A stretch of DNA of 64,000 bases from Vicinamibacterales bacterium (lineage in GTDB: Bacteria; Acidobacteriota; Vicinamibacteria; Vicinamibacterales; SCN-69-37), in the NCBI GenBank assembly GCA_036675475.1, contig JAKFEY010000001.1:10442-74441 (forward strand), in the 5' to 3' direction. How positions within the stretch are numbered: position 1 is the stretch's first letter; each line of letters opens with the position of its first letter. Shown one piece after another: positions 4,067 through 61,203 of the stretch. The notes under the pieces were generated by a model. That model saw only the letters and a list, made by a program, of their open reading frames with translations. It searched no databases and was not told the DNA's origin. The position numbers and the translations under genes are program-made.

Positions 4067-4095
4067 TTGACCTGAGACCGCAATGTGGGCACAAT
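4067..4095 (+). promoter_or_regulatory. sigma70-like promoter TTGACC-N17-CACAAT, 6 nt upstream of the phd ATG (would give a leaderless mRNA)
   Basis: ttgacc (4067-4072), a 17-nt spacer, cacaat (4090-4095), ATG at 4102. No SD fits in between. Pattern match only. Confidence 0.3.
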
Positions 4096-4101
4096 GACTA
4101 C

Positions 4102-4796: not shown

Positions 4797-4805
4797 CGGC
4801 GCCGA

Positions 4806-35984: not shown

Positions 35985-36953
35985 ATGTCCCGCCCGGCGC
36001 TCGTTACAGCCACAGACGACATTCTCAGCCAAATCTACGATCAGACGTGGGCAATCTGGAGTGACGGCCTCGACCGGGGCAGTTACGAGCGCTACAACCG
36101 GGCCCAGATGGCGACGACCTGGGGAAAAACGCACCTGGACCGCCTCGCGCTGGTCGAAGGGGACACTGTGCTGGCCAGCGCCAAGCGGTATCGCCTCACC
36201 CTGCAGGTGGACGGCGAAGACATGCCGTGTCTCGGGATTGGCGCGGTGTTCACCCCGCCGGACCGGCGCGGGCAGGGCCACGCCGCGTCGCTCATCGAGC
36301 GCATGATCGAACAGGCCGCCGGCGAGGGCGCCGGCATGGCGCTGCTGTTCTCCGAAATCGATCCCGCTTTTTACGCGCGCCTCGGATTCGAGCCCATCCC
36401 CATCGGTGAGGCCACGCTCGCGCTGCGCCCGCAGTCCCGCGAAGGCGCGCCCGCCGTGCTCATGCGCGGCGGCGACGACCGCGACATCGACAACATCGCA
36501 TCGATGCATGCCGCGCGTGCCGCGCGCTACGGCCTCTCGCTGGCGCGCGCGCCCGAATACATCCGCCACGCCATCTCGAAGCGGCGGCTGCTCGCCGCGT
36601 TTGGCGCGCCGGGCCTTCGGCACGTCGAGTACTTCATTACCGAAGAGGGCGGCAACGCCGTCGCCTATATCGTGGTGACGCGCGGGCCCGAGGGGCACGT
36701 GCTCGAGGAATGGGGCGATCGTGATCCCACCGGCGCGCGCGTGGGCGCGATGCTGCAGGTGCTGGCGGCGCGCACGCCGACGGAAGCGGCCGTGAAGCTG
36801 CGGACGTGGCTGCCGCCGGACTTCGCGCCGCCGCAGCTCGAGCGCATCGACGAGAAGCCGGCCGCCGAAGTCGGCATGCTTCGCGGCATCGGGCGCGGCA
36901 CGCCGCGCGTGCCCGCGTCCGGCGTGTTCTATCTCAAGGCTGACGCGTTCTGA
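35985..36953 (+). CDS. GNAT acetyltransferase (Eis-like, with C-terminal extension)
   Basis: Trimmed to ATG 35985. IGAVFTPPDRRGQGHAASLIERMI ... FYARLGFEPI. Confidence 0.7.
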   Translation: MSRPALVTATDDILSQIYDQTWAIWSDGLDRGSYERYNRAQMATTWGKTHLDRLALVEGDTVLASAKRYRLTLQVDGEDMPCLGIGAVFTPPDRRGQGHAASLIERMIEQAAGEGAGMALLFSEIDPAFYARLGFEPIPIGEATLALRPQSREGAPAVLMRGGDDRDIDNIASMHAARAARYGLSLARAPEYIRHAISKRRLLAAFGAPGLRHVEYFITEEGGNAVAYIVVTRGPEGHVLEEWGDRDPTGARVGAMLQVLAARTPTEAAVKLRTWLPPDFAPPQLERIDEKPAAEVGMLRGIGRGTPRVPASGVFYLKADAF

Positions 36954-38853
36954 TCACGAACGGCCGCAGCACGCGGCCGGCTTCCTTGCCGTCCGACTTC
37001 ACGATGGCGCGCGCGAGAAATTCGCCTTCGCCAAGCAGCGCCACGTCGACGCGCGCCTCGCCCGTCCGGCGCCCGGGCTGTGGCGCGGCGCTGAATGTCA
37101 CCGGCACCTTCGTCAGCGCCAGTCCGTCCTCGCGGCGCGAGATCTCAATGTCGACGCTCGTGCCGTCGAGCAGCGCCGGCACGTCCGAGTACAGCTCGAT
37201 GTAGGTCTGCAGCACCGTGCCGGCCGGCCCGTCAGTCAGCAGCGCGAGCTTCTGCGTGGCGGGATGCTGCTCCGACAGCAGCAGATCGGACCAATGCAGC
37301 TGCCCGGCGCCGTGCAGGCGCGCCTCGAACGTGTGGCCGACGCTGCCGTCGCGGCCCGACGCGTCCGCAACCGCATACCGAAGCGAATAGATGCCGGGAT
37401 CGACGACGAGCGCCGAGGCGAAATGCTCGACGCGGCCGTTGTGCGGCCCGAGCGACGGCTCGACGTCGCTGCCCGCCAGCCGCCCGTCGCGATCGACGAG
37501 CGTGAATCCCATGGCCGCATCCACCGACGGGTTCAGCGTGCGATCGACCTCCGACGCGATGATCACCTTCACCTTGCCGCTTTCATCACGCACGATATAC
37601 GGCGACACCTTGATGCCGACCGACGTCAGATCGATGGGCGATCGCAGCGCTTCGCCCAGGCGCGGGCCCAGCGACGCCGCGTCGAGCGCCGCGTCCATCG
37701 CAAACTCGCGGCGCGCGCGCACCGTCAGGCCGCGACGTCCCACACCAATCTTGATCTTGTGCGTGCGGCCGTCGCGTTCGCCCGGCTGCGGCTCGAACGA
37801 GAGCAGGTAATACCCCGACACCTCGGTGCTGACGCGGCTGAAGCCAAGCCACGGATTCGACGGCGACAGTGGCACCACTGCGCCGCCGGCCAGGCCCGCC
37901 AGCAGCTCGAGTCCTTCTTTCTCGAGGGCGCGATCGGCCGATCGCGACCGCGACATCGTGGCCGCCCCGGCTTCGAACGGCGAAGACTCCATCTGCAGCA
38001 CGTACAGCGAGACTTGCGACTCGGCGGCGGTGGGCGCAACCCATCCCAGATCCTGCACGCCCTGATCGAGCACCAGCCCCTCCGACAGCAGCACCATTGT
38101 CTTGCGCGTCCGCCCGGCGCGAAGACGCCGCATCGTCTCGCGCAGACCGACCAGCGACTCTGCCGTGCGGCTGCGAATCTCACCGCTGACGATGCGCGCG
38201 TCGCTGATGACCATCCGCTGGCAGAGCGCCATCTCGTCGGTGCTCATGTTGCCCGCGCATTCGCGCTCGAGCACATCGCGCAGCACATCCTGCTGCCCGC
38301 GCACGATGGCCTTGGCCTCGTACACGCCCACGCGCGTGCCATGCTGCATCGACGGGCCGCGGCCCGCGACGCGCTTCAGCGTTTCGGCCACCAGCGCGTG
38401 GTTCGACGTGAAGTCGAGCACCGGGCCCGCGCCCGGCAAAAGCTGCAGGCCGACGCGATCGTTCGAATTCAGCGTGCCGAGAAACTTCGCGGCCGCGTCG
38501 AACACCACGCGCCCCGTACCCGCCTTGATGTTGTTCTGATCGATGACGAGCATGATCAGCCGCCCGCCGCGGCTGTCCAGATTGCTCGAGTAATAGGCGG
38601 GTGGCGGCCCGGGATCGACCAGCCGCCGCAGTGACACGAACTCCGCCGACGCGATCTCGCGCCGCTTGCCGTCGACCTCGAGCGTGAAGTCCGCCGGCGT
38701 CAGATCCGCAACCGGCCGCCCATCGTCATCGACGACGACCACATCGACGGCGACGCGGTCGACACCCGATCGGAACGTCGTCTGCGGCTGCTGCGCAGGC
38801 GCCGCCTGCTGCGCGCCCAGAAGCACCGCGCCAGCCAGCCAGAAGATCAGCAT
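36934..38853 (-). CDS. VWA-domain exported protein (VWFA-related acidobacterial type, TIGR03436-like)
   Basis: QTTFRSGVDRVAVDVVVVDDDGRPVADLTPADFTLEVDGKRREI is the family-typical N-terminus. Then LIMLVIDQNNI and NDRVGLQ (VWA fold). Confidence 0.8.
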   Translation of the reverse strand: MLIFWLAGAVLLGAQQAAPAQQPQTTFRSGVDRVAVDVVVVDDDGRPVADLTPADFTLEVDGKRREIASAEFVSLRRLVDPGPPPAYYSSNLDSRGGRLIMLVIDQNNIKAGTGRVVFDAAAKFLGTLNSNDRVGLQLLPGAGPVLDFTSNHALVAETLKRVAGRGPSMQHGTRVGVYEAKAIVRGQQDVLRDVLERECAGNMSTDEMALCQRMVISDARIVSGEIRSRTAESLVGLRETMRRLRAGRTRKTMVLLSEGLVLDQGVQDLGWVAPTAAESQVSLYVLQMESSPFEAGAATMSRSRSADRALEKEGLELLAGLAGGAVVPLSPSNPWLGFSRVSTEVSGYYLLSFEPQPGERDGRTHKIKIGVGRRGLTVRARREFAMDAALDAASLGPRLGEALRSPIDLTSVGIKVSPYIVRDESGKVKVIIASEVDRTLNPSVDAAMGFTLVDRDGRLAGSDVEPSLGPHNGRVEHFASALVVDPGIYSLRYAVADASGRDGSVGHTFEARLHGAGQLHWSDLLLSEQHPATQKLALLTDGPAGTVLQTYIELYSDVPALLDGTSVDIEISRREDGLALTKVPVTFSAAPQPGRRTGEARVDVALLGEGEFLARAIVKSDGKEAGRVLRPFVIRTRQP

Positions 38854-38913
38854 GCCCCCATTCTAGTGCCCGCGCTCGTCGTCGGCTCCGTGCTCCGCCG
38901 CTTGCTGCGACGA

Positions 38914-39163
38914 GGCCGCGCGAAAGGGCGCTCGGGTCAGTCTGTCGCTGCGCCGCGTAGCTCGGGCGATCTCAGCTCGCATGCACAACCACGGCGCCGC
39001 GACAGACCGACCACTCGCGCTCAGCGCGGCCATGCGCAGGGGCGGTGTCCGGTGTTCCTCAGCGACGCCGTTAAAAAGACATCGGAGAGACCCGGCGCAC
39101 GATCACGCGCCTGGCTCGACTCGCCTCGGCGGCGCTGAGGAATACTGGACGCCGCCCCGAGCA
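38914..39163 (+). repeat. intergenic structured repeat, copy A (module 1: 38914-39031; module 2: 39032-39163)
   Basis: Module 1 matches the reverse complement of 43801-43918 at 116/118 positions by my hand alignment. Module 2 is homologous to the reverse complement of 54306-54439. Both modules are long imperfect hairpins. Confidence 0.8.
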
Positions 39164-39186
39164 AGGGCTCGGTGCCCGAGCGCGGC

Positions 39187-40740
39187 TTATCGCCGCTTGA
39201 GGTCGGAGGTGATGTGTTGGGCGGCGAGGAGGCCGGGGAGGCCTGTGATACCGCCGCCGGGGTGCGAGCCGGCCGAGCCGAGGTAGAGGCCGCGCACGGG
39301 GGAGTCGTAGCCGTGCATGCCGAGCAGCGGCCGCGCGACGAGCATCTGATCGAGCGCGTGCTCGCCGTGATGGATGTGGCCGCCGTCCATGCCGTAGATG
39401 ACTTCGAGATCCTCCGGCGTGATGACTTCCGCGTTCACGACGATGCGGGTGATGCCGGGGGCGACGGTTTCGAGCGTGCGCATGACGCGTTCGAGCAGTG
39501 TGTCTCGCGCGGCCGTCCATGTCGTGCCGCGAAGCGTGCGCGGCGCGTACTGCGCATAGATCGACATCACGTGTTTGCCGGCCGGCGCGAGCGAGCCGTC
39601 GTGCGTGGACGGCACGGCAATCTCGAGCCACGGGTCCGTCGACATCTCACCGTACTTGCTCGCGTCGAAGGCGCGCTCGAGATAGTCGACGTCGGGCCCC
39701 ACGTGAATGCGCCCGCGCAGCGCGGATGGATGTGCGGCGAGCGCCGGAAACACCGGCAGCGTGTCGAGCGAGAGATTGACCTTCGCCGTGATGCCGTGCG
39801 CGCGGATGTTGCGCGTGCGCGTGACGGTGTCGGGCGCGATGATGCCGGGCTCGACGAGGTGCAGCAGCGTCTGCTTCGGTCCCACGGCCGACAGCACCGC
39901 GCGACACGCGATGGTCTCGCCCGAATCGAGCGACACGCCCGTCACCGCATCCCCCTCAATCAGCATCTGGCGCACGCCGCAGGAAACGCGGATGGTGGCG
40001 CCGGCCGACGTCGCGGCCTTGGCGATCGCGTCCGAAAACGCGCTGATGCCGCCCGTGACCGTGAGCCCGCTGCCCACCGGGTGTGGATCGAAAGCGAGCT
40101 GATAGAGATATGAGAGCGTGCCGCCGGCCGATCGCGGCCCGAGTTTCGAGCCGAGCAGGCCGCGCGCGGCGATGGCGGCGCGCAGCAGATCGTCGCCGAA
40201 CCATTCCTGCACGAAATCGGCGATGGGCATCGGGCCCCAGCGCAGCAGGCCGTACGCGGTGCGTCTGTCGAGCGCGCGAAACTTTCGCGCGGCGCCGCCG
40301 AGCGTGAGCACGTCGCGGAACGACGGCGCGTCCATGTCGGGCGCCGGCTTTTCGAGCACGGACGCGACGACGCGGACCGCGTCGTTGACCTGCTGCACGA
40401 ACGACCCGTAGCGCGCGGCATCACTGCCGGACGTCACCGACAGCGCTTCAACCGTCTTGCCGTGATCGCGATAAAACGGAATCGCCTTGCCGGCCGCATT
40501 CACCGCCGTCAGCGGAATGTCGGGCGTCATCCACTCGACACCGTTGAGTGTCAGCGCGCGCGCCAGCGCCGGATGTACGGGCGGCATCGTGTGGGCCAGC
40601 GCGTTCGACGCGGCGCCGCCGACGGTGGACCGCCGTTCGAGCACGAGCGTCGACAGGCCCGCGCGCGCGAGCCGCTCCGCCGCCACCAGGCCGTTGTGGC
40701 CCGCGCCGATGACGATGATGTCGACCGAAGCCGGGGTCAT
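39187..40740 (-). CDS. FAD/NAD(P)-dependent oxidoreductase, phytoene-desaturase (CrtI/COG1233) family
   Basis: DIIVIGAGHNGLVAAERLARAG, LERRSTVGGAA. C-terminal GLYLGSAGSHPGGGITG. Confidence 0.85.
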   Translation of the reverse strand: MTPASVDIIVIGAGHNGLVAAERLARAGLSTLVLERRSTVGGAASNALAHTMPPVHPALARALTLNGVEWMTPDIPLTAVNAAGKAIPFYRDHGKTVEALSVTSGSDAARYGSFVQQVNDAVRVVASVLEKPAPDMDAPSFRDVLTLGGAARKFRALDRRTAYGLLRWGPMPIADFVQEWFGDDLLRAAIAARGLLGSKLGPRSAGGTLSYLYQLAFDPHPVGSGLTVTGGISAFSDAIAKAATSAGATIRVSCGVRQMLIEGDAVTGVSLDSGETIACRAVLSAVGPKQTLLHLVEPGIIAPDTVTRTRNIRAHGITAKVNLSLDTLPVFPALAAHPSALRGRIHVGPDVDYLERAFDASKYGEMSTDPWLEIAVPSTHDGSLAPAGKHVMSIYAQYAPRTLRGTTWTAARDTLLERVMRTLETVAPGITRIVVNAEVITPEDLEVIYGMDGGHIHHGEHALDQMLVARPLLGMHGYDSPVRGLYLGSAGSHPGGGITGLPGLLAAQHITSDLKRR

Positions 40741-42365
40741 ACCGGCAGCGTCCAGGGATCACGCGCGGCGCCCCGCGGGCCGGCTGCGTTGGCGCGGCCG
40801 AGAATGGCGAACGCCGCGTTGCGCCCGGGTGCCGCCATGATGCCGCCGCCGGGGTGCGTGGCGGAGCCGCACATATAAAGGTTGCGGATGGGTGTGCGAT
40901 ACGACGCCCATCCCGGGGCCGGGCGCAGGAAGAACAGCTGCTCGAGCGTGAGCTCACCCTGGAAGATGTTGCCCTCGGAGAGTCCCCACTCGCGCTCGAG
41001 ATCCAGCGGCGTCACCACCTGCCGGTGCAGGATGATGTCGCGGATGTTCGGCGCGTGCTCGGCAATCGTGTTGATGACGGTGTCTCCGAACGCGTCCTTC
41101 TGATCGTCCCAGTTGCCCTCGGCCAGGTGATACGGCGCGTACTGCACGAAGCACGACATCACGTGCTTGCCGGGCGGCGCGACGCTCGGATCCGTCAGGC
41201 TCGGAATGACGATGTCCATGTACGGACGCCGCGAAAACCGCCCGTACTTCGCATCGTCGTACGCGCGCTCCATGTAGTCCACGCTCGGAGAAATGGAGAT
41301 GGCGCCGCGCAGGTGCGGGCCGTTGCCGGGCATGGCCGTGAAGTTGGGCAGCGCGTCGAGCGCGAGGTTCACCTTGCCAGACGAGCCGCGGTACTTGTAG
41401 CGGCGGATGTCTTCGACGAAGTCGTCAGGCAGGTGCTCGACGCCGGTCATCCGCTCGAATGTCAGGCGCGGATCGACGCTCGACGCGATCACGTCGGCAA
41501 GGATGTAATCGCCGTTCTCGAGAATCACGCCCGTGGCGGATCCGTTCGAGACGATGATCTTGGCCACGCCGGCCTCGGTGCGGATTTCGACGCCGGCGGC
41601 GCGCGCCGCGCCGGCAATGGCATTCGACACCGCGCCCGTGCCGCCGCGCGAGAAGCCCCACGAGCGGTAGGCGCCGTCGATTTCGCCCATGTAGTGGTGC
41701 AGCAGCACGTAGGCGGTGCCCGGCGATCGCACGCCGAGGAACGTGCCGATGATGCCAGACGCCGACATCGTGGCCTTGAGTACGTCGGTCTCGAACCACT
41801 GATCGAGAAAATCGACCGCGCTCATCGTCATCAGCTGCAGCTGGTTGTAGCGATCGCGCAGCGGAAGATTGCGGAAGCGGTTGGCCAGGCCCGCAAGCTC
41901 CCGCAGTCCGCCGAAGCCGGGGCGCGTGGGATCGGGCGGCGTCATCGCCATGATCGGCTTGACGAAGCGGCCCATCTCGACCATCGCCTGCGAGTACTCG
42001 TCGTACGCCTCGGCGTCGATGCGTGAGTGGCGCGCGATTTCGCGGCGCGTCTGGCCGTGATCGTTGGTGCGCCACAGGTAATCGCCGCTCGGCATCGGCG
42101 TAAAGGTGCCGTCGAGCGGAAGAATCTCGAGGCCGTGCCGCGCGAGGTCGAGCTCGCGGATGATTTCGGGCCGCAGCAGCGACACGACATACGAGCACAC
42201 CGAGAACTTGAAGCCGGGAAACACCTCCTCGGTGACTGCCGCGCCGCCCAGTACGTGGCGCCGCTCGAGCACGAGCACCTTTCGGCCCGCGCGCGCGAGA
42301 TACGCCGCCGTCGTGAGCCCGTTGTGTCCCCCGCCGATAATGACGGCGTCGTACTTCGTGGCCAT
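40737..42365 (-). CDS. FAD/NAD(P)-dependent oxidoreductase, phytoene-desaturase (CrtI/COG1233) family, paralogue
   Basis: Trimmed ORF 40737..42788 to ATG 42365. YDAVIIGGGHNGLTTAAYLARAG, LERRHVLGGAA, NLYMCGSATHPGGGIMA. ATGA overlap with the downstream paralogue. Confidence 0.85.
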   Translation of the reverse strand: MATKYDAVIIGGGHNGLTTAAYLARAGRKVLVLERRHVLGGAAVTEEVFPGFKFSVCSYVVSLLRPEIIRELDLARHGLEILPLDGTFTPMPSGDYLWRTNDHGQTRREIARHSRIDAEAYDEYSQAMVEMGRFVKPIMAMTPPDPTRPGFGGLRELAGLANRFRNLPLRDRYNQLQLMTMSAVDFLDQWFETDVLKATMSASGIIGTFLGVRSPGTAYVLLHHYMGEIDGAYRSWGFSRGGTGAVSNAIAGAARAAGVEIRTEAGVAKIIVSNGSATGVILENGDYILADVIASSVDPRLTFERMTGVEHLPDDFVEDIRRYKYRGSSGKVNLALDALPNFTAMPGNGPHLRGAISISPSVDYMERAYDDAKYGRFSRRPYMDIVIPSLTDPSVAPPGKHVMSCFVQYAPYHLAEGNWDDQKDAFGDTVINTIAEHAPNIRDIILHRQVVTPLDLEREWGLSEGNIFQGELTLEQLFFLRPAPGWASYRTPIRNLYMCGSATHPGGGIMAAPGRNAAFAILGRANAAGPRGAARDPWTLPV

Positions 42366-42416
42366 CTGCACCGCAAAGAATACAGGAGACCGGACGGCGT
42401 TGTATCCTGTGCCGTC

Positions 42417-43631
42417 ATGCCGATCGGCACCCCGCTGCACGAGCGCACCTTTCCGCTGTGCACCAGCCTGAACTATCGCGACTGGGCCGGGTACTACGCT
42501 GTCAGCGCGTACGAAACGCACCACGAGCACGAATACAACGCCATCCGCAACGGCGCGGCGCTCATCGACATCTCGCCGCTGTTCAAATACATCCTCACCG
42601 GGCCCGGCGCCACCGCCCTCGTCGACCGCATCATCACGCGCAGCGCCGCGAAAATGAAGCCGGGGCAGGTGTACTACACGCCCTGGTGCGACGAGCGCGG
42701 CAAGGTGCTCGACGACGGCACCGTGACGCGGCTCGAGGAAAACAAGTATCGCTGGACGGCGGCCGAGCCGAACATGCGCTGGCTGCACGAGAACGCGCGC
42801 GGGCTCGACGTGCAGATCGAGGACGCGTCGGAGCGCATCGCGGCCATGGCGCTGCAGGGGCCCACATCCGGCGCGCTGCTGATGCGCGCGGCGGAGGCCG
42901 ATGTCGCATCGCTGAAATATTTCCGGATGACGACCGGCACGATTCAGGGCATCCCGGCGGAAATTTCGCGCACCGGCTATACCGGCGACCTTGGCTTCGA
43001 GATCTGGGTCGATGCCGACAAAGCCGCAGCGGTGTGGGATGTGCTCATGACCGAAGGCCGCGCCTTTGCCGTCAAGCCCACCGGCATGCTGGCGCTCGAT
43101 GTCTCACGCATCGAAGCGGGCCTGCTGCTGATCGATGTCGACTTCTTCAGCGCGCGCAAAGCCCAGATCGCGTCGCAGCTCTATTCGCCGTTCGAGATGA
43201 GCCTGGATCGGCTTGTCGATCTTTCGAAAGAGCGGTTCATCGGCCGGCAGGCGCTCGCGGCGGAAGCCAGACAAGGCCCGCCTCGCCGCATCGTCGGTCT
43301 CGAGTTCGACTGGCCGGAAGTGGAGCGCATCTACGAGCGCGCCGGCCTGCCGCCCATGACGGTCGCGACGGCGTCGCGCGTCGCCGTGCCCGTGTACGCG
43401 CCCGGCCGCGGCCAGATCGGCCGCGCCACGTCGACGACCTGGTCGCCGATCCTGAAGCGCATGATCGCGCTTGCCACGCTCGACGCCTCCATGTCCGCGC
43501 CCGGCACGCGCCTCGAGGTCGAACACACCGTCGACGCCGTCCGCCACCGCGTCGCCGCCAACGTCACCCCGACCCCGTTCTACAACCCGCCGCAGAAGAC
43601 CGCGCCGATTGGACAGCTGAACCCGGCATAG
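42417..43631 (+). CDS. aminomethyltransferase-family (GcvT-like) folate-dependent enzyme
   Basis: Trimmed ORF 42027..43631 to ATG 42417. EHEYNAIRNGAALIDISPLFKY, MALQGPTS, ISRTGYTGDLGFEIW. Confidence 0.85.
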   Translation: MPIGTPLHERTFPLCTSLNYRDWAGYYAVSAYETHHEHEYNAIRNGAALIDISPLFKYILTGPGATALVDRIITRSAAKMKPGQVYYTPWCDERGKVLDDGTVTRLEENKYRWTAAEPNMRWLHENARGLDVQIEDASERIAAMALQGPTSGALLMRAAEADVASLKYFRMTTGTIQGIPAEISRTGYTGDLGFEIWVDADKAAAVWDVLMTEGRAFAVKPTGMLALDVSRIEAGLLLIDVDFFSARKAQIASQLYSPFEMSLDRLVDLSKERFIGRQALAAEARQGPPRRIVGLEFDWPEVERIYERAGLPPMTVATASRVAVPVYAPGRGQIGRATSTTWSPILKRMIALATLDASMSAPGTRLEVEHTVDAVRHRVAANVTPTPFYNPPQKTAPIGQLNPA

Positions 43632-43659
43632 CAGACTTGGCTCAATGACGCCGCTCGTC

Positions 43660-43918
43660 TGCGTGCCCGATGTCGCGCAGCGGTGCCGAGGTGAGGGCGC
43701 GCCAAAGAGCGGTCGCGCCTGCGATCTTTTAACGGCCCCGCTGCACGACATCGAGCACGCAACCAACGGCGAGCGCGGACGCATGGCTGCGCGTGATCCG
43801 GGCCGCGCTGAGCGCGAGCGGTCGGTCTGTCGCGGCGCCGTGGTTGTACATGCGAGCTGAGATCGCCCGAGCTACGCGGCGCAGCGACAGACTGACCCGA
43901 GCGCCCTTTCGCGCGGCC
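43660..43918 (-). repeat. intergenic structured repeat, copy C, inverted relative to copy A (module 1: 43801-43918; diverged module 2: ~43660-43800)
   Basis: Module 1 is identical to copy A except for 2 substitutions. The module 2 region keeps the ggatcacgcgcag and gccgttaaaag landmarks but is otherwise diverged, so its left boundary is approximate. Confidence 0.75.
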
Positions 43919-43924
43919 CCAGCG

Positions 43925-45100
43925 TCAGGCCTGGCTGGGATCCTCGCCGAGGACGACTGTGATGAAGCGGTCGAAGGCGTAGAGGAGGTCTTCGCGGTTC
44001 GAGTAGGGGCCCGGGACGTAGGCGGGCGAGGAGATGCCCTGCTGCGACAGTTCGCAGACGTGCCAGTCCTGCCGGTTGGTGAGGTCCCAGAAGTCGAGCA
44101 CGTCTTTCGCGTCGAAGCCGGGCTTCGCGAGTTCTTCGGGCGCGAACAGCCATTCGCACGTCAGCCGCGTGCGGTCGGGCGCGAGCGGCTCGGTGCGATG
44201 CACCATCACGTAGTCGGGGTGCAGGCTCAGGAAGAGATTCGGGAAGATGGCGTAGTAGTAGACGCACCGCCGGTCCTCTTCCGAGAGGCCCGGCAGCAGG
44301 TCGCGCGGGCACGAGCCGTCCATCGACATGGTGATGATGCCGGGGCGCAGGTCCATGCGGCCGCCCATGTAGGTGCGGCGCAGCGGCTCGTTTTCGCCGC
44401 TCATGTAGTGCGAGAGCTTGTTGAGCGCCGGATGAAGATTCGGGCAGTGCAGGCACTCGTTGAAGTTCTGGATGATCAGCTTCCAGTTCGCGCCGATCTC
44501 ATAGACTTCGCGGCCGCCGCGGCGCAGGCGCTCCATCTGCCAGGGCGCGAACTTCTCGGGCAGGGCCGCAAGGTGATCGGCGAGCGGATCGCCGCCGTTC
44601 TCGGCGAGATTGACGAACACAAAGCCGGCCCAGACCTCGGTGGCCACCGAGTGCAGCGGGAAGCGCGCCTTGTCGAAGCCGGGCGTGCCCTCCATGTGCG
44701 GCGCGCCGACCAGGCGGCCGGTGAGGTCGTACGTCCACGAGTGGTACGGGCACTGAATCGCGCCGGCAAAATGGCCATGCGATTCCACGCACAGCCGCGT
44801 GCCGCGGTGGCGGCAGACGTTGTGATGCGCGCGAATCGACGCGTCATCGTCGCCGGTGCGCGTGATGATGATGCTCTGGCCGGCGATGTCGCGGAGCATG
44901 TAATCGCCCTTGCGCGGCACTTCTTCGGCGCGCCCGGCCTGCACCCAGTTGGAGCGGAAGAAGAGATCCAGCTCGCGCTCGAAGAGGCGCGGGCTGGTGT
45001 AGAAGCGCGCGGGAAGGGTGGTGGCGCCTTCGGGCAGCGGATCGCGCGGCTTGATGTGCGAAGCCGGAACGTCGTGCGTGAGGTCGCTCACGTGAGGCAT
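43925..45100 (-). CDS. Rieske [2Fe-2S] non-haem-iron oxygenase alpha subunit (GbcA / ring-hydroxylating type)
   Basis: CRHRGTRL ... CPYHSWTY (Rieske motif). NFNECLHCPNLHP (mononuclear-iron region). Confidence 0.85.
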   Translation of the reverse strand: MPHVSDLTHDVPASHIKPRDPLPEGATTLPARFYTSPRLFERELDLFFRSNWVQAGRAEEVPRKGDYMLRDIAGQSIIITRTGDDDASIRAHHNVCRHRGTRLCVESHGHFAGAIQCPYHSWTYDLTGRLVGAPHMEGTPGFDKARFPLHSVATEVWAGFVFVNLAENGGDPLADHLAALPEKFAPWQMERLRRGGREVYEIGANWKLIIQNFNECLHCPNLHPALNKLSHYMSGENEPLRRTYMGGRMDLRPGIITMSMDGSCPRDLLPGLSEEDRRCVYYYAIFPNLFLSLHPDYVMVHRTEPLAPDRTRLTCEWLFAPEELAKPGFDAKDVLDFWDLTNRQDWHVCELSQQGISSPAYVPGPYSNREDLLYAFDRFITVVLGEDPSQA

Positions 45101-45111
45101 GATAGCGCACC

Positions 45112-46383
45112 GTGAATCATCCAGCCCTGAAGCGCGCGCTCGGCCCGTGGGACCTGACGGCCCTCGGCGTCAATCAGGTGATTGGCACCGGCGTGTTCCT
45201 GATGCCGGCGCTCGTGGCCGGGCAGGTGGGATCGTGGAGCACGGTCGCCGTGCTGGCGGTCGGCGGCCTGTCGATGTTCATCGCGCTTTGTTTCGCCGAA
45301 GCGTCCAGCCGGGTGGCGACGACCGGCGGCGCCTACATCTACACGCGGCAGGCGTTCGGCCGCTTCATCGGCTTCGAAGTGGGCTGGATGACGTGGTTCA
45401 CGCGCGTGGCGAGCTGGGCCGGCGTCGCATATGGATTGACGATGTATCTGGCGCGGTACTGGCCGGCGCTCGACGACGGCACCGCGCGTGGGCTCTTCCT
45501 GACGGGCGTGTTCGGCGTGCTGACGGCCATCAACATCCGCGGCATCCGCCAGAGTGCGTGGGTCGTGAACTCGCTGACCATCGGCAAGCTGGTGCCGCTC
45601 GCCGTGTTCGTGGCCGGCGGCCTGGCGTTCGTGGAATGGTCGCGGGTGATGCCCGTCAAGCCGTGGCCGCCGTTCGATCAGACGTCGGCGGCGCTTCTGT
45701 ATCTGATCTTCGCGTTCGGCGGCTACGAGGTGGTGCCGGTGCCGGCGGGCGAGGCGCGGCGCCCGGAGCGCGACGTGCCGTTCGCGATGGTGATGACGAT
45801 TGCGATCGTGACGCTGCTCACCATCCTCGTGCAGGTGGTGGCGCAGGGTGTGCTGGCAAATGTGGAGATCTCGAAGGCGCCGCTTGCCGACGCGGCCGTG
45901 ATCTTTCTGGGCGCGGGGGGCGCGCTGCTGCTCACGATTGGCGCCGTGATTTCCACGACCGGCAACAACATGGGGCAGTCGCTGTCGGGATCGCGCAGCC
46001 TGTTTGCGCTCGCCGAGCAGCGCGACTTGCCGCAGGCGATGGCCTGGGTGCATCCGCGGTGGCGCACGCCGGTGGTGGCGATCGTGATCACGTCCGCGGT
46101 GGCGCTGGCGCTTGCCGTGACGGGTTCATTCTCGACGCTCGCGCTCGCGAGTGCCGTCAGCCGGTTGCTGGTCTACGCGGGCACCGCGGCCGCCGTGCTG
46201 GCGCTGCGGCGCGAAGGGCGCGCGCCGTTCACGATTCCCGGCGGCCCCGTGGTTCCCGTCGCCGCGCTGCTGGTGTGCCTGGCGCTGGTGGCCGCCGCGA
46301 CGTCGGAGCAATTCCGCATCGGCGGCCTCGCGCTAATCGTCGGCGCCGCACTGTTCGCGGTAGCCCGCTGGTCCGACCCTTAA
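45112..46383 (+). CDS. APC-superfamily amino-acid permease
   Basis: LGPWDLTALGVNQVIGTGVFLMP, about 12 hydrophobic segments. GTG start only 11 bp from the divergent Rieske ATG. Confidence 0.85.
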   Translation: MNHPALKRALGPWDLTALGVNQVIGTGVFLMPALVAGQVGSWSTVAVLAVGGLSMFIALCFAEASSRVATTGGAYIYTRQAFGRFIGFEVGWMTWFTRVASWAGVAYGLTMYLARYWPALDDGTARGLFLTGVFGVLTAINIRGIRQSAWVVNSLTIGKLVPLAVFVAGGLAFVEWSRVMPVKPWPPFDQTSAALLYLIFAFGGYEVVPVPAGEARRPERDVPFAMVMTIAIVTLLTILVQVVAQGVLANVEISKAPLADAAVIFLGAGGALLLTIGAVISTTGNNMGQSLSGSRSLFALAEQRDLPQAMAWVHPRWRTPVVAIVITSAVALALAVTGSFSTLALASAVSRLLVYAGTAAAVLALRREGRAPFTIPGGPVVPVAALLVCLALVAAATSEQFRIGGLALIVGAALFAVARWSDP

Positions 46384-54301: not shown

Positions 54302-54305
54302 TTCT

Positions 54306-54439
54306 GATGCTCGGGGCCTGGTCCGGTATTCCTCAGCGCCGGCGAGGCGAGTCGAGCCCGGCACGGAGCAGCCGGTCTCTCCGAAGTCCTTTTAACGCCG
54401 GCGCTGATGAACACCGGACGCCGCCCCTGCGCGTGATCC
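54306..54439 (-). repeat. intergenic structured repeat, copy B (module 2 only), inverted relative to copy A
   Basis: The reverse complement, ggatcacgcgcaggggcggcgtccggtgttcatcagcgccggcgttaaaaggac ... ctcgactcgcctcgccggcgctgaggaataccggac, aligns with 39032-39163. Confidence 0.75.
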
Positions 54440-55993: not shown

Positions 55994-58900
55994 CTATATC
56001 GCAGCCCGCTCGTCTTCAGTCAGGCCGTAGAGCCGGGCGATGACGCGGCCCGCGCTGCCCGCGTCAAGGCCTGAGAGCTCAGCCACCGACGCCTCCATGT
56101 CTGGCACCGGCAGCCATTCGATGAGCGACGTGGTGACGTGCGAGCCGACGAACAGGCGGACGAGGAAATTCGCGACGTCGCTGTTGAGAATCAGCGCGAG
56201 TGCGCGCTGCGTTCGGAGGTCCCACGCGTTTCGCAGGCAGAACAGGCTGTGCGAGGTCACCGCGCCGGCGGGGACGATGGCGGCGATGAGCGTCTGGGTG
56301 TTGGTGGGGGCCGTGACGTCGCGATAGGCCAGACGCGCGCGGTCGAAGGGCAGATCGGGCAGCAGCCGCGACGCGGCTGCCCGCGAGATGCGATGGCGCG
56401 CGCTCGCCACGTCGACGTGGTGCGGGTGCAGATGCTTGCCTTCGAGCACGGGCAGGCTTCCTCTTGCCGAGAAGGCGCCGCGGTCGTCGGTGAGGTTGAG
56501 TTCGCGGCCGAACGACGCGCCCCAGCCGCGCGGGTCGCCGAGCGCTTGGTGGCGGCCGCAGAGTTTCATTGCGAGTGCGAGGTGCGCCGCCGACGCCGCG
56601 TCTGGCACACGGCGGCTGCTGCCGCCAATCGCCTGCAGCGCTTCGCGCGTGATGAGCGGGCCGGAGCGCGGCGCACCGGCATCGGGCAGGTCGTCGAGGG
56701 CGGCGGCGTGCGCGATTCGCGTCAGCTCGAACGCCTGAGACATTTCGCCGGTCGTCGCCGTGACCGCCGCAAACCGGAGGCTGCGATGCGCCTGGAAGAT
56801 GCCGTCGCGATTGTCGAAGCGCGCGAGGGTGTCGATGCGCGTGCCGTCGAGCAGCGTCTGCCGCAGCCCCGCCGACCCATCGTCGGTCATCAAGCCCCAG
56901 GGCAGCACCAGGCCGATGCGCCCGCCGGGCCGCGTGAGCTGCAGCGAGCGTTCGAGGAAGAGTTGATACAGATTGACGTGGCCTCGCGCAGAGCGGGGAT
57001 AGAGGCCAGACCCGCGCGCGAAGGTGTTCATCGCGTGCCGCGAGTCGGAGCCGGCGCCTGCGCGCAGCATTTCCCAGGGCGGATTGCCGACGACGGCGTC
57101 GAAGCCGGGCGCGTCGCCGCCGAAGACGTCCGGGAATTCGAGCGGCCAGTGAAAGAAGCGCAGTGAACCCGCATGCGCGGCGGCTTCGCGGAGCCGGCGT
57201 CCGGCCGCGCGTGCCCCGATGACGCGGGAGCGCAGCACCAGACGATCCGCCAGCGCGCGATATTCGCGCGCGTCGGCGCGTGACGCAGCCGGCACGAACC
57301 ACCACGCGCACCAGATGTCGCAGAGCACGCGCCATCGCGACAACCCGGCCGTGTCCGCGCGAAGGGCGGCGAACAGCCGCTGCTTGCGCCGCACGTCTTC
57401 GAGGTTTTCCTCGCGCATGCGCGCCAGATCGCACGCGCGTGCGGCCCCGGCACGCACCGCCTCGTCGGATGCGTGCGCGTCGAACAGGGGAAGCGCCGGC
57501 CCTCGTCCGGCCACGCGAGGCGCGTGACGCGCGGCCGCCGGGTCGATGCCGATCAGGCTGTTGCCGCACCTGAGGCGATGGTCGAGAAAGCTGAGCGGCC
57601 TGCCGGCCGAGAGCGTAGCCAGCCAGAGTGAGAGCTGCGCGAGCAGCGCCGCAGTGGGATTGGCGTCGACGCCGTACAGGCACTGCTGCGCCACCTGCCG
57701 GCGCAGCTGCTGGCGATCGGCGTCGGTGACGTCGTGTTCAGGCAGTTGTCCTTCTTCGACCAGGGCGCGCTCGAGCGCGCCCGTGAGAAACCTCAGCGCC
57801 GCCACCAGGAACGCGCCGCTGCCCATGGCGGGATCGAGGACGCGCAGCGAAAGGATGCGGCCCGACGAGGCGCCGGCGACGAGCGGCGACAGCGCGCGGC
57901 GGACGATGAAGGCCGTGAGCGATCGCGGCGTGTAGAACGAGCCCGACTCCTTGCGCGCGCGGCCGGCGGCATCAGGGTCGAGATCGAGCACGCGCTCGTA
58001 GATCGAGCCGAGCTCCTCGACATCGAGCTCCGCGTAGCTGACACGGCGCGCACCGCCCCGCGCGGGCCGATATTCGGTGAGCGAGGCAAGCGCTTCCGAC
58101 GCGGGCCGATCCAGTTTCGAATCGAGCAGCGGCGACGCGGCCCACTTGCGCCGGGGTCCGGGCGCAAACAGCCGGCCATTGAACCCCGCGACCTGCAACG
58201 TGCCCGCGCGGCATCCCTCGCCAAGCAGGCGGCGGCCCGCTTCGAGCGAGGCCCACGCGCCGCGCGGATCCCTGGGCGGCCATCGCGTCGCTACGCTCGT
58301 CAGCGAATAGTGATCGCGATACACGCGATGCCACACGGGAACGAGCGCGCGCGCTTCCGCGAAGAGGACGAACAACAGACGGAAGACGACACCGAGGCTG
58401 GCATCGAACGGCAGCTCGCGCGCAAGCGCGTGAATGGACGTCTGCACGCCTTCGCGAAGGTGCTGTTGGACTTCAATCGCCGAACGGTCTGACGAGGCAA
58501 TTGCGTCCGCCAGCGCGCCGCGTGCCCATGCCTCCGACGCAAGAATGGCCGCCGCAAAGCCCGCCGTGTCGGCGTGCGCGGCAAGATCGTCGAGCGCGAT
58601 GCACGCGGTGCGTCGCGGCGATCCCGGGCGCGCGTCCATGACGGCGAGGCACACGCCGTTGAAGCCGGCCGCCCACGGCGCGCCGGCCTCGAGCGCCGCG
58701 CGCAGTACGCGGCGCGTGTCGAGCGCGAGCGGGCGGCCCCACGGGAAGGCCACGAGCAGCGCCGCCTCGCCCGAGGGCGACAGCGCCACGGCATGCTCGC
58801 CCGCGCCGCGGCACGCGAAGCCGAGCGGTTGCTCGAACACATCCTGCAGCGCTTCGAGCAGCCGTCGGCACGACGCCGACGGTCCGAGCGTCGTCGACGT

Positions 58901-59050
58901 GCGAGCTGCCCACGCGGCAATGCCGTCCGCGCCGCTCGTGCCGTTCGCCGCGGCGCGCGTGTGGCGGCCCTCGCCGGACGCGAGCCAGTCTCTCGCGGCG
59001 CGAGGCGACAGCAGCGTGCCCGACAGGCCGGGAATGACGACGCCGGTCAT
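55994..59050 (-). CDS. gamma-class N6-adenine DNA methyltransferase, PglX / Eco57I (type IIG/L-like) architecture, 1018 aa
   Basis: Trimmed ORF 55994..59533 to ATG 59050. GSFYTPRSL, VLDPAMGSGAFL (SAM motif I), YGVDANPTA, RCGNSLIG, FHWPLEFPDVF, FDAVVGNPPW (motif IV). Long unassigned N- and C-terminal regions. Confidence 0.85.
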   Translation of the reverse strand: MTGVVIPGLSGTLLSPRAARDWLASGEGRHTRAAANGTSGADGIAAWAARTSTTLGPSASCRRLLEALQDVFEQPLGFACRGAGEHAVALSPSGEAALLVAFPWGRPLALDTRRVLRAALEAGAPWAAGFNGVCLAVMDARPGSPRRTACIALDDLAAHADTAGFAAAILASEAWARGALADAIASSDRSAIEVQQHLREGVQTSIHALARELPFDASLGVVFRLLFVLFAEARALVPVWHRVYRDHYSLTSVATRWPPRDPRGAWASLEAGRRLLGEGCRAGTLQVAGFNGRLFAPGPRRKWAASPLLDSKLDRPASEALASLTEYRPARGGARRVSYAELDVEELGSIYERVLDLDPDAAGRARKESGSFYTPRSLTAFIVRRALSPLVAGASSGRILSLRVLDPAMGSGAFLVAALRFLTGALERALVEEGQLPEHDVTDADRQQLRRQVAQQCLYGVDANPTAALLAQLSLWLATLSAGRPLSFLDHRLRCGNSLIGIDPAAARHAPRVAGRGPALPLFDAHASDEAVRAGAARACDLARMREENLEDVRRKQRLFAALRADTAGLSRWRVLCDIWCAWWFVPAASRADAREYRALADRLVLRSRVIGARAAGRRLREAAAHAGSLRFFHWPLEFPDVFGGDAPGFDAVVGNPPWEMLRAGAGSDSRHAMNTFARGSGLYPRSARGHVNLYQLFLERSLQLTRPGGRIGLVLPWGLMTDDGSAGLRQTLLDGTRIDTLARFDNRDGIFQAHRSLRFAAVTATTGEMSQAFELTRIAHAAALDDLPDAGAPRSGPLITREALQAIGGSSRRVPDAASAAHLALAMKLCGRHQALGDPRGWGASFGRELNLTDDRGAFSARGSLPVLEGKHLHPHHVDVASARHRISRAAASRLLPDLPFDRARLAYRDVTAPTNTQTLIAAIVPAGAVTSHSLFCLRNAWDLRTQRALALILNSDVANFLVRLFVGSHVTTSLIEWLPVPDMEASVAELSGLDAGSAGRVIARLYGLTEDERAAI

Positions 59051-61203
59051 GAGCGGAACGTGGCGATGGCTCGCGCGCGCGCGGCGGTGATGCGCGCGTC
59101 GGCGGCGTGGCGCGCGATGGCGTCGCGCGTTGCCGAGGCAACGGCCTCGCGCGCGCCGGCGTCGGCGGCGCGCTGTCGATCCGCGCGGCGCTCGAAGAGG
59201 CCGTCCTGCCGCAGCGGTGCGCCGACAGACGCGAGCGCCGCGTCGCGTACATCGAGCTCGCGCGCGGTGCGGCGTGCCGCCCTGGCCGCGAGCGCGCGCG
59301 CCAGACGCGGCATCCGCGACGCGGCCCACGACCGGCCCCACGTCACGGCGGCCTCCACGCCCGCACGCAGTGCGAATACGCGCCGATCGAGCGCCGCGCC
59401 CCCTTCGACAACGGTTTCGATCTCGACGGCCGTGATCTCGCCTGCAGGAAGGGAGACGGGCTGCGTCTGATGCGGGTGATCCTGGCGCCGCGCGTGCAGC
59501 CGTCGCGCTTCGGCCGCGGCCAGCGTGTCCCACCGCCGCCCCGTGATGCGCTCATCGTCCTGCATGCGCGCGGCGAAGGCCGCGAGCCGCGCGCGCATCG
59601 CGTGCGGCAGCGTGCTCGCGCTTTCGAGCAGCGTGGCGTGCACGCGCCGCGTCTGGCCGAGACGATCCACGCGCCCGACGCGCTGGCGGATCGTCGGGGG
59701 CCGCCAGGGCAGGTCGTAGTGTATGACCCACCGGCAGCGCGCGTGGAGGTTGAGACCCTGCGACGCCACGTCCGTGGCCGCGAGCACCGTCACGCGGCCG
59801 CTGGTGAACGCGCCGAGCGCGCCGTGCAGCGCGGCGGGCGGAAGCGCGCCGTGGATGATCGCGGTCCGCGCATCCGCGCGCAGCCGGGCGGCGATCGTGT
59901 CGGCGGTATCGCGGAAGCAGGAGAAGATCACCACCGGCTCGCGCGCGCGCCGCACCAGGCGCGCCAGCGCGTCGAGACGCCGATCGGCGCGCGACGCGCG
60001 CAAGGCCAGCTCAATCAGCGCATCGAGCCGGCGCCGCTCGCGATCGAGCGGCAGTCCCGTTGCGGCGCCGATGACGGCCGCATCCTCATCGCTTTCAAGC
60101 AACGCCAGTTGTGCCTCGCCCGGTGCCGTCTCAAGCGCGGCGCGGCGCCGCAGCAGCGACAGGTGCAGCGCGTGCGGCGACGACACGGCGCGTTTGATGA
60201 GCACGCTGCACAGCAGCGGTACGGCGGCGTCCTGCCGAGACGCGCCGGCGAGCCAGCGAACGTAGCGCGCGAGCGCGTCGTGCAGCGCCTGCTCTTCCGG
60301 AGATGGCGCAACGCGAAGCACGCGCTCGGCGCGCACGCGCCCGGCCGCCACATGACGCAGGCAGATGAGACGCGCCTCGCGCGTTCCCGCCCCGAGCGCG
60401 CACAGCGCGCGCAGACGCTCTCCGCCCCCGTCCGACGGCGTTGCCGTGAGCAGCAGCACGCGGCGCGCGCGCGCGGCCACCAGCGAAACGGCGGCGTGCC
60501 GCTCGCTCAGGCCGCACGCGAGGTGCGCCTCGTCGACGACCACGAGATCCCAGAGCGCGGCGCGAAGCGACCGCAGGATGTGCGGCTGCTTGAAGAAATC
60601 GAGCGACGCCAGCAGGCATCCGGGCAGCGCCCACACGTCGATGCCGGCCGGCACCTCGTCCTGCAGCCGCCGAAGCGCCGCGGCGTCGATCGCGGTCGCG
60701 TCGATCGCGAGCCGATCCTGAAGCTCGGCGCGCCATTGCGACAGCAGGTGGCCCGGCGCCAGCACGAGGCAGCGCCGGTCGGGCAGCGCATCGAGGCAGG
60801 CGCCAATCGCAATCGCGGCCGCGACGGTCTTGCCCATGCCGGCCTCGTCGGCCACCAGCACGCGCGGCCATCCCCGCTCGAACGCCAGCGCCGCGCACAA
60901 CTGCCACGCGTGAATGTCGCCACGCAGCCGTTCCGCGGTGTGAAGGGCAAACGCCGTGCGCGAGGCGCGGGCCGCCGCCGACACGATCGCCGCGGCCTGC
61001 CGCGCCGGCATCGGCGTGAGCCGGCTGCCGGCCGCCACCGCGGCCACCGGCTCGTGCGGACGCACCGCAACCAGCCGATCGGCCGCGCTCGCGGTCTCTC
61101 GCGACAGGTACACGAGGTGCGTGCGTCCGCAACCCTGGCGCACGGTCTGTTCGACACGCCACCGCCAGCCGCGCGCGCCCGCCATCATCGGCAGGTTCTG
61201 CAT
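59047..61203 (-). CDS. SNF2/SF2-family helicase-like ATPase (718 aa)
   Basis: LVADEAGMGKT (motif I), VVVDEAH (II), LLLTATP (III), DLPWRPPTIRQRVGRVDRLGQ (VI). Unassigned ~115-aa N-terminus and ~200-aa Arg/Ala-rich C-terminus. Stop overlaps the MTase ATG (ATGA). Confidence 0.85.
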   Translation of the reverse strand: MQNLPMMAGARGWRWRVEQTVRQGCGRTHLVYLSRETASAADRLVAVRPHEPVAAVAAGSRLTPMPARQAAAIVSAAARASRTAFALHTAERLRGDIHAWQLCAALAFERGWPRVLVADEAGMGKTVAAAIAIGACLDALPDRRCLVLAPGHLLSQWRAELQDRLAIDATAIDAAALRRLQDEVPAGIDVWALPGCLLASLDFFKQPHILRSLRAALWDLVVVDEAHLACGLSERHAAVSLVAARARRVLLLTATPSDGGGERLRALCALGAGTREARLICLRHVAAGRVRAERVLRVAPSPEEQALHDALARYVRWLAGASRQDAAVPLLCSVLIKRAVSSPHALHLSLLRRRAALETAPGEAQLALLESDEDAAVIGAATGLPLDRERRRLDALIELALRASRADRRLDALARLVRRAREPVVIFSCFRDTADTIAARLRADARTAIIHGALPPAALHGALGAFTSGRVTVLAATDVASQGLNLHARCRWVIHYDLPWRPPTIRQRVGRVDRLGQTRRVHATLLESASTLPHAMRARLAAFAARMQDDERITGRRWDTLAAAEARRLHARRQDHPHQTQPVSLPAGEITAVEIETVVEGGAALDRRVFALRAGVEAAVTWGRSWAASRMPRLARALAARAARRTARELDVRDAALASVGAPLRQDGLFERRADRQRAADAGAREAVASATRDAIARHAADARITAARARAIATFRS

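Follow-up and report, generated by a model that had tools for sequence, protein, structure and literature searches.

Two families of palindromic intergenic repeats beside an ancestral three-gene block in a Vicinamibacterales bacterium

The window, that is, the whole 64-kb stretch of DNA analysed, contains three metabolic genes (two for paralogous FAD-dependent oxidoreductases and a divergent one for a GcvT-like protein) between the arms of a 118-nt inverted repeat, each arm having a further palindromic module on its inner side (Table 1). The 118-nt unit is designated M1 and the inner module M2, the geometry being [M1>M2>] three genes [<M2<M1]. The start of the 543-aa oxidoreductase was set at 42368 and not at the end of the longest ORF (42788); the proteins of relatives are 541-551 aa long. 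An exact match to the 404-aa GcvT-like protein was present on Logan contigs, and the nearest named homologues were from Vicinamibacterales and Acidobacteriota MAGs. These homologues, together with the acidobacterial VWA domain (TIGR03436) of the flanking gene, led to rejection of a Burkholderia origin, which the GC content had suggested. The content of the ORFs at about 31.2-36 kb was read from the Pfam labels of syntenic genes in relatives. A conserved TAGAAT box lies just upstream of the ATG of the VWA-domain gene, a motif common to the relative L045. The tRNA scan of the window found none. As the earlier note had stated, no transposase or recombinase lay between or beside the repeats, and the Pfam scan of about 45 window ORFs returned no transposase, integrase or RAYT (including PF01797-type).

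Table 1. Repeat units and genes in and around the bracketed block, in window coordinates.
Feature	Coordinates	Strand	Basis
Secreted acidobacterial VWA-domain protein (left flank, outside the bracket)	36934..38853	-	NCBIfam TIGR03436, 126 bits vs cut-off 81
M1 left copy, 118-nt palindromic unit, canonical orientation	38914..39031	+	Hairpin -73.4 kcal/mol, z -6.0; aligned with five other copies
M2, subtype A, about 135 nt; arms 39039-39070 and 39127-39158; 2 nt past M1	39032..39168	+	Fold -89 kcal/mol, z -9.0; nhmmer E 3e-34
FAD-dependent amine-oxidase / CrtI-like oxidoreductase, 517 aa	39187..40740	-	Pfam PF01593, PF01266; NCBIfam matches below cut-offs; orthologues in conserved synteny
Paralogous FAD-dependent oxidoreductase, 543 aa	40737..42368	-	Pfam; paralogue repeat spacing 1628 nt
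GcvT-family aminomethyltransferase-like, 404 aa, divergent from both oxidoreductase genes	42417..43631	+	Pfam PF01571, PF08669; NCBIfam matches below cut-offs
M2, subtype B; arms 43660-43688 and 43733-43761; ggatcacgcgcag end adjoins M1	43645..43800	-	Fold -84 kcal/mol, z -4.6; nhmmer E 8e-26
M1 right copy, inverted vs left copy	43801..43918	-	Repeat search, fold, alignment
Rieske ring-hydroxylating oxygenase alpha subunit, GbcA-like (right flank, outside the bracket)	43925..45100	-	Pfam PF00355, PF00848; NCBIfam match below cut-off
M2, third copy, subtype A, without adjacent M1	54303..54439	-	Repeat search, fold, nhmmer

The repeat search of the window gave M1 arms that were 98% complementary and 4769 nt apart. 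Alignment reproduced exactly the two differences in 118 positions previously claimed, C/T in catgNacaacc and A/G in gaccNctcgc (116/118; 98.3% identity), and the outer flanks were unrelated, also as claimed. Each M1 copy folded into a long hairpin (-73 to -80 kcal/mol, z about -6), and none of 200 shuffles was as stable. The 8-bp terminal and 6-bp inner stems were as the earlier note described them, but its 13-bp stem was complementary at 12 of 13 positions, with one A.C mismatch on the plus strand of the left copy. The termini were GGCCGCGC...GCGCGGCC, and the sole GTAG of M1 lay in the central loop. M1 was small (below about 300 bp), non-coding and bounded by terminal inverted repeats, which are MITE-type features. 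Paired positions that varied among the aligned M1 copies were not compensated, so that only its distribution points to mobility of M1.

M2 is a hairpin repeat family separate from M1, about 90-135 nt long, ending in GGATCACGCGCAG, and with two subtypes (A and B). The inner module that had been proposed was thus real, and gccgttaaaa was colinear in both copies; its other supposed landmark, ggatcacgcgcag, stood at the M1-proximal end in the right and third copies only, the left copy having atgcgcag at that position and the string gatcacgcgc elsewhere, in the loop. Subtypes B and A differed by compensatory stem changes, 7 of 35 pairs being changed on both sides with pairing kept. All three window copies started about 20-25 nt past the stop codon of the upstream gene. 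The third lay in the gap that separates an NrfD/4Fe-4S gene from a molybdopterin oxidoreductase gene, and ended 5 nt before the ATG of the latter (54302). An attC-like reading of M2 (GTTAAAA) was dropped: the motif occupies the loop, not the ends of the palindrome, and the genes, being syntenic, are no cassettes. The suggested Rfam check for a structured RNA matched no family at gathering or permissive thresholds at the repeats; with Rfam 15 the whole window gave 0 matches at gathering score, and the permissive search of 38800-39250 gave only far sub-threshold matches to miRNA-precursor hairpins.

When 185,579 species genomes and 241 million metagenome records were scanned with the stem 21-mer, M1 turned up on three contigs only, two from the Vicinamibacterales MAG SMAG_U14480 (L020 and L022) and one from a JGI soil metagenome (L038). 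On L020, a full M1 was accompanied by an M2 and by the left arm of an inverted M1; L022 carried an M2 left arm, an M1 and an M2; L038 carried two direct M1 copies and one M2. All these M1 copies lay between genes, with 89-95% identity to those of the window. Other 21-mer matches in the genome, metagenome and viral scans were single chance matches in coding DNA, and the M2 26-mer had no match among viral contigs. In the plasmid collection, the distant search with M1 was empty and the near search with the 11-kb region returned a 53-nt chance match only. A protein database search with three joined M1 ORFs, for spurious ORFs over other copies, returned nothing. Profiles run with nhmmer against the window and 47 loci found no further M1 or M2 copies in the window, whose density was 2 M1 and 3 M2 in 64 kb, all intergenic; the totals across all data searched were six full M1, one M1 fragment and about seven M2. 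The recurrence of M1 at unrelated intergenic sites in other data from Vicinamibacterales supported the earlier proposal of a MITE/REP-like palindromic family, M2 being a second one.

Of the six full M1 copies, five were accompanied by an M2, always at the same end and with relative orientation and order unchanged (linkers of 2, 6, 7, 8 and 36 nt). Both M2 subtypes occurred beside near-identical M1 copies, and the partial units in L020 and L022 lay within M1/M2 mosaic clusters.

The favoured explanation, with a probability of about two in three (0.68), is that M1 and M2 are two non-coding families of hairpin-forming intergenic repeats, REP/REPIN- or MITE-like, of a narrow lineage of Vicinamibacterales (Acidobacteriota). 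Their clustering is best read as BIME-like, that is, mosaic with variable linkers. M2 copies would have come first in both spacers (A on one side, B on the other), with M1 probably arriving later and independently at the same end of each window M2; the mirror-image layout would then result from the fixed M1-then-M2 order and opposite insertion orientations. By analogy with Y1/RAYT and IS200/IS605 transposases, a transposase encoded elsewhere in the genome would move the elements in trans by recognising hairpin DNA, which would account both for missing target-site duplications and for landing beside another hairpin. No consistent direct repeat was found around the six M1 copies, shifted borders included, and the sole long flanking direct repeat (9 bp, second M1 copy of L038) was the GCGCGCGCA string common to the M2 border. 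No parent IS or RAYT, and no full-length IS with M1/M2 termini, was found in the window or in the other loci retrieved.

The near identity of the window M1 pair may reflect descent from a recent common source or gene conversion between the neighbouring copies, and is no proof that the pair terminates a single mobile unit. For these copies, recent duplication or gene conversion is plausible. That their likeness stems from a local event, either gene conversion between the two inverted copies across the 4.8 kb that separates them or inverted copying of one into the other, is possible though doubtful: every other M1 pair was 89-94% identical, with 92.4% for L020/L022 (one MAG) and 89.8% for the two L038 copies (one contig), and identity in the window pair ended exactly at the M1 borders, the neighbouring M2 copies differing in subtype. 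However, the copies compared were from other assemblies, with a young and uniformly similar M1 population in this genome as the alternative, and pairs from MAG or metagenome data may mix strains or older copies. The greater likeness of the window pair may leave room for a locus-specific event.

Three relatives (L023, L024 and L025; 78-84% protein identity to the window, spacers of 0-150 nt) had the genes for a permease, the Rieske oxygenase, the GcvT-like protein, the two FAD oxidoreductases and a GNAT acetyltransferase in the order and orientation of the window; among these three loci the VWA-domain gene followed the FAD oxidoreductases in L023 and L024 only. The Rieske oxygenase gene was next to the GcvT-like gene in every relative compared. 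No M1 or M2 was found with the nhmmer profiles in L023-L025. At the same two junctions, relatives without M1/M2 had unrelated long hairpins (-65 to -83 kcal/mol, z -7 to -12), which included inverted heptamer or decamer arrays. In L043/L044 (a relative of 93% identity), the same spacer held a degraded M1 arm and an M2 of subtype B in the other orientation; from these sequences, turnover of M1/M2 between close relatives appears to be fast.

Selection for a hairpin at these junctions could account for part of the pattern. Hairpins might be kept for a host role at the RNA or DNA level at gene ends (factor-independent or bidirectional termination, mRNA 3' protection, operon insulation), repeat spread only supplying them, a reading that is compatible with the two repeat families and is in itself unlikely. 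The position of the three window M2 copies just past stop codons, the compensatory changes that keep the M2 stem, and the unrelated but highly stable hairpins at both junctions of relatives without M1/M2 are all consistent with it. Conversely, the promoter and terminator scan of 38700-44100 returned nothing, with no U-tract or terminator-like site; both M1 (3 vs 2) and M2 occurred in either orientation relative to transcription; one M2 sits 5 nt ahead of a start codon within an apparent operon; and L045 had no large hairpin in the corresponding spacer.

Because relatives without M1/M2 share the order and orientation of the three genes, these were neither delivered nor inverted by the repeats. 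The earlier note had regarded them as a candidate cassette for inversion or mobilisation through the repeats, which was not borne out: gene order and orientation with respect to both flanks were identical in the three repeat-free relatives, and the synteny comparison that it proposed showed the same block with neither absence nor inversion. The three-gene block is ancestral, and the repeats, which landed in its flanking spacers, mark no mobile or invertible cassette. That the M1/M2 composites are terminal inverted repeats of a mobile or invertible segment carrying the three metabolic genes is consequently very improbable, although the mirrored geometry with outer arms 98% identical would suit such a segment and 118 bp of homology is long enough for RecA-dependent inversion. 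Apart from the repeat-free relatives, the bracket leaves the Rieske oxygenase and permease outside and thereby splits an apparent conserved neighbourhood (permease, Rieske oxygenase, GcvT-like gene, two FAD oxidoreductases); because the inner M2 copies are diverged subtypes, the composite ends do not represent one duplicated unit; and neither a recombinase or transposase in the scanned ORFs nor a target-site duplication was found. M1 pairs elsewhere were direct (L038) or partial (L020), so that the inverted layout is not characteristic of the M1 family, and the estimated chance that two M1 copies would land no more than three genes apart, given about 45 junctions, was about 0.14.

Logan assemblies from several SRA runs reproduced positions 39116-41116, 41782-43693 and 43890-46378 of the window base for base, and because of these exact independent matches the gene-to-repeat junctions are no assembly artefact. 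In several samples, the ends of Logan contigs fell within M2 arms and some 30 nt into M1, as is expected of short-read contigs in repeated sequence. An inverted repeat created by assembly (a chimeric join or a collapsed repeat) would suit these breaks but has a negligible probability, given that contigs from independent runs equal the window over gene-M2 and gene-M1 junctions and that M1 and the M1-M2 arrangement recur in independent public assemblies.

Beyond the two repeat families as such, M1 might be a hairpin seeker that integrates specifically at the base of M2 hairpins, always on one side and in one orientation and with no target-site duplication, moved by a putative Acidobacteriota single-strand-DNA transposase; more broadly, each Vicinamibacterales lineage might populate the same gene-end junctions with long, fast-evolving hairpins of its own, through a lineage-wide requirement or a generating mechanism. 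This extension is speculative and rather unlikely to hold. The association of M1 with an adjacent M2 and the unrelated hairpins that relatives have at these junctions are the sole parts perhaps worth pursuing; no new mobile cassette or new mechanism is revealed. What the locus adds is a pair of intergenic palindromic repeat families not described before. Their host order, Vicinamibacterales, is abundant in soil and has few cultured members, and no description of REP- or MITE-type repeats was found for it. M1 and M2 break short-read assemblies of the lineage, can yield false signals of cassettes bounded by inverted repeats, and are substrates for inversion and gene conversion.

Bacterial MITEs such as ERIC/IRU, Correia, RUP and RU-1/2/3 are imperfect palindromes of 100-130 bp, intergenic, non-coding and found in either orientation (PMC2759123 and general knowledge). 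M1 and M2 are like them in size, palindromy, intergenic site, occurrence in either orientation and lack of coding capacity, but have no sequence similarity to them, no Rfam match, no TA or other consistent target-site duplication, and no parent IS with matching terminal inverted repeats among the sequences searched. Genomes with RAYT-associated REP sequences typically carry one cognate RAYT (Y1 transposase) gene bordered by the repeats, along with tens to hundreds of extragenic elements. REPINs are inverted REP doublets mobilised by RAYT transposases, and compensatory changes have been reported in their hairpins (Bertels & Rainey 2011, PMC3116915). M1 and M2 share with REPINs an extragenic unit of about 100 nt folding as one long hairpin, no target-site duplication, within-genome populations, a tendency to cluster and, in M2, a hairpin preserved by compensatory changes. 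Unlike those of REPINs, their arms are not recognisable short self-palindromic REP units, though each element folds as a single long hairpin, no RAYT was found in the 64 kb, and the host is acidobacterial rather than proteobacterial. REP and REPIN sequences are recognised by a conserved GTAG- or CGTC-type tag at one palindrome end (PMC3733652); no such tag was evident by eye at the ends of M1 or M2. Some IS elements target REP sequences (Tobes & Pareja 2006, PMC1525189), and M1 beside M2 is likewise one repeat landing next to another palindromic repeat, although M1 is non-coding and its targeting is deduced from five adjacencies. In E. coli BIMEs, variable linkers join REP units that belong to different types (PMC3479197 and general knowledge). 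Although three to five times as long as REP units and without sequence relationship to them, M1 and M2 resemble BIMEs in comprising two palindromic unit types with a preferred relative order, variable linkers and partial units (L020, L022, L038).

M1, a 118-nt hairpin repeat unit, and M2, the module on its inner side, most likely belong to the REP/REPIN/MITE type of non-autonomous repeats accumulating in BIME-like mosaics. The two M1 copies formed the longest inverted repeat of the 64-kb window (98% complementary, 4769 nt between the arms), and their alignment (98.3% identity) gave exactly the two mismatches listed in the earlier note, which was also correct in that the sequences outside the pair do not align. 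Each M1 unit alone formed, as had been described, a long imperfect hairpin, with a fold energy of -73 to -80 kcal/mol (shuffled mean -52 to -56, z about -6, 0/200 as stable) and one A.C mismatch in the proposed 13-bp stem. Positions 39116-41116, 41782-43693 and 43890-46378 were matched exactly by Logan assemblies of several independent SRA runs, and therefore the gene-to-repeat junctions are not artefacts of the window assembly; short-read assemblies ended about 30 nt inside the elements.

Repeats, genes and other features by position
Feature	Position	Strand	Remarks
VWA-domain protein, secreted, acidobacterial	window 36934-38853		outside bracket
CACTAGAATGG motif	window 38854-38880; L045:2040-2060		
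M1 left copy	window 38914-39031		
M2 left copy	window 39032-39168		subtype A
FAD-dependent amine-oxidase/CrtI-like oxidoreductase	window 39187-40740	minus	inside bracket
Paralogous FAD-dependent amine-oxidase/CrtI-like oxidoreductase	window 40737-42368	minus	inside bracket
GcvT-family aminomethyltransferase-like gene	window 42417-43631	plus	inside bracket, divergent from oxidoreductases
M2 right copy	window 43645-43800	reverse	diverged subtype B
M1 right copy	window 43801-43918		
GbcA-like Rieske oxygenase	window 43925-45100		outside bracket, then amino-acid permease
M2 third copy	window 54303-54439		subtype A, no adjoining M1
Junction hairpins, relatives	L024:6488-6642; L024:11530-11660; L023:11540-11645		
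PF05635 gene	L024:7856-8374		
Further heptamer arrays	L024:19564-19591; L024:20410-20449		
Small palindrome tgtggaaacctccctcaaggaaggtttccaca	L038:290-350		between two M1 copies
Methyltransferase and helicase ORFs	window 55994-61203		
Lower-GC region	window 1219-5553		

M2, the inner module, is a repeat family of its own and also folded into a long hairpin (-81 to -89 kcal/mol; z -4.6 to -9). The arms of subtypes A and B differed at about a third of positions with the stem kept; 7 of 35 predicted pairs were changed on both sides with pairing preserved, and variation in the loop consisted of deletions. Of the two landmarks said to be shared by the inner modules, gccgttaaaa was colinear between copies, but ggatcacgcgcag, which in the right and third copies forms the M1-proximal end of M2, was shortened to atgcgcag in the left one. 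The third copy (-80.6 kcal/mol) lay between NrfD/4Fe-4S and molybdopterin oxidoreductase genes of the same strand, and stopped 5 nt before the ATG of the latter with no obvious ribosome-binding site left.

A scan with a 21-mer of the M1 stem (GGTCRGTCTGTCGCNGCGCCG) returned, chance single matches aside, two contigs of the Vicinamibacterales MAG SMAG_U14480 (L020 and L022) and a JGI soil metagenome contig (L038). The order was full M1, 36 nt, M2 and the reverse complement of the M1 left arm in L020, and M2 left arm, M1, 6 nt and M2 in L022; L038 carried two direct M1 copies with 440 nt between them and M2 abutting one. Every M1 or M2 copy was intergenic, and this recurrence in other gene contexts supports the MITE/REP-like palindromic family proposed in the earlier note. 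M1 occurred in both orientations relative to neighbouring genes (3 against 2). All six full-length M1 copies had common ends (GCCGCGC...GCGCGGC), were 89-95% identical outside the window pair, and had no consistent target-site duplication around them. In five of the six, M2 lay to one constant side of M1 with the relative orientation unchanged (subtype A, n = 4; subtype B, n = 1), with linkers of 2, 6, 7, 8 and 36 nt. In a relative with a 93% identical oxidoreductase (L043/L044), the spacer corresponding to that of the window held an oppositely oriented M2-B joined to a degraded M1 left arm, and therefore the content of this spacer changes on a short evolutionary scale. At least three types of hairpin made up the mosaic in the 580-nt spacer of L038.

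Neither M1 nor M2 matched any Rfam family, a search suggested earlier for a structured RNA, and the three open frames of M1 retrieved nothing from protein databases. As had been stated for the repeats and the DNA beside them, no transposase or integrase, nor any Y1/RAYT protein, was present among roughly 45 window ORFs scanned with Pfam outside about 31.2-36 kb; by the Pfam labels on the relatives' syntenic genes, that interval would contain a microcompartment-shell BMC protein, a D-serine dehydratase-like protein, DUF1501 and DUF1800. The closest named homologues came from Vicinamibacterales and Acidobacteriota MAGs.

Contigs of relatives fetched via the orthologue of the first oxidoreductase (L023, L024 and L025; protein identity 83, 79 and 78%, respectively) contained neither M1 nor M2 (blastn, nhmmer), and the two corresponding spacers were 0-150 nt long, versus about 290-330 nt in the window. 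Hairpins at gene junctions may have a host-function component, as unrelated, very stable hairpins occupied the same two junctions in relatives without M1 and M2, and the window M2 copies started about 20-25 nt past a stop codon (3/3); however, no U-tract terminator signature was found, M1/M2 orientation was not conserved, and the spacer of the close relative L045 was without a large hairpin. The hairpins of the relatives (-65 to -83 kcal/mol, z -7 to -12) were inverted arrays of short tandem units, for example (AGAACGTAGAACAC)x5 opposite (TTCTGTG)x4, or units of GCTTACCC- or CAGGTAAGCG-type, and some in L023 and L024 extended into flanking ORF ends. Only in L024, a 141-aa PF05635 gene (23S rRNA intervening-sequence protein/bAvd-like) sat between the GcvT-like and oxidoreductase genes, flanked by (AGAAGAC)x8 and inverse (TCTTCTG)x5; similar heptamer arrays occurred elsewhere on that contig.

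The stored sequences of L023, L024 and L025 run opposite to the window. Their plus strand carried permease (-), Rieske (+), GcvT-like (-), two FAD oxidoreductases (both +), VWA protein (+; L023 and L024 only), GNAT (-), DUF1800, DUF1501 and further genes, which once reversed is exactly the window order and orientation. The synteny comparison proposed earlier thus found the three-gene block without repeats, and because repeat-free relatives have the identical arrangement, the three genes are older than the repeats and in ancestral orientation; the same agreement leaves the invertible or mobilisable cassette of the earlier note unsupported. The Rieske oxygenase and permease, which always accompany the three genes, are cut off by the bracket.

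With M1 and M2 as accumulating intergenic repeats, the mirror-image layout follows from the usual side of M1 plus chance opposite orientations: two M1-M2 pairs, each with M1 on its usual side, would have come to lie oppositely in spacers three genes apart. By the analysts' own estimate, the chance that random placement puts two copies no more than three junctions apart (about 45 in the window) is about 0.14, and they are as likely to be inverted as not. Since near-identical M1 copies adjoin different M2 subtypes, the two repeats did not come in together; M1 is likelier to have landed beside M2 hairpins already in place. The window pair, at 98.3%, was the most similar of all M1 pairs (against 92.4% for the one-MAG pair and 89.8% for the one-contig pair). 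A source shared recently by both copies, or gene conversion between the two inverted neighbours, is consistent with this, as had been suggested.

Among other features, the CACTAGAATGG motif (TAGAAT, -10-like) lay about 7 nt upstream of the VWA-domain gene ATG and was conserved in the repeat-free L045, which suggests that a transcript with no or almost no leader starts just outside M1. An Eco57I/MmeI-type N6-methyltransferase fusion (1179-aa ORF) followed by an SNF2/DEAD helicase ORF (overlapping calls, provisional starts) resembles a module for restriction or defence. The lower-GC region (61-64% vs about 69%) encoded a Schlafen-group-3-like helicase, two PIN-domain proteins and a DUF5655 protein, and may be an islet of toxin-antitoxin or defence genes.

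By analogy, a putative mobilising single-strand-DNA Y1 transposase of RAYT or IS200/IS605 type would fit both the affinity of the elements for hairpins and the lack of a target-site duplication. M1 and M2 are like REP/REPIN/MITE-type repeats in being long intergenic palindromes found in either orientation within a narrow lineage and in turning over rapidly, and like BIMEs in clustering with partial units and linkers of variable length. Hairpins kept by compensatory change are a feature reported for REPINs (PMC3116915), and M2 also retains its hairpin in this way. M1 and M2 represent new intergenic palindromes of REP/MITE-like kind from a phylum that has received little study.
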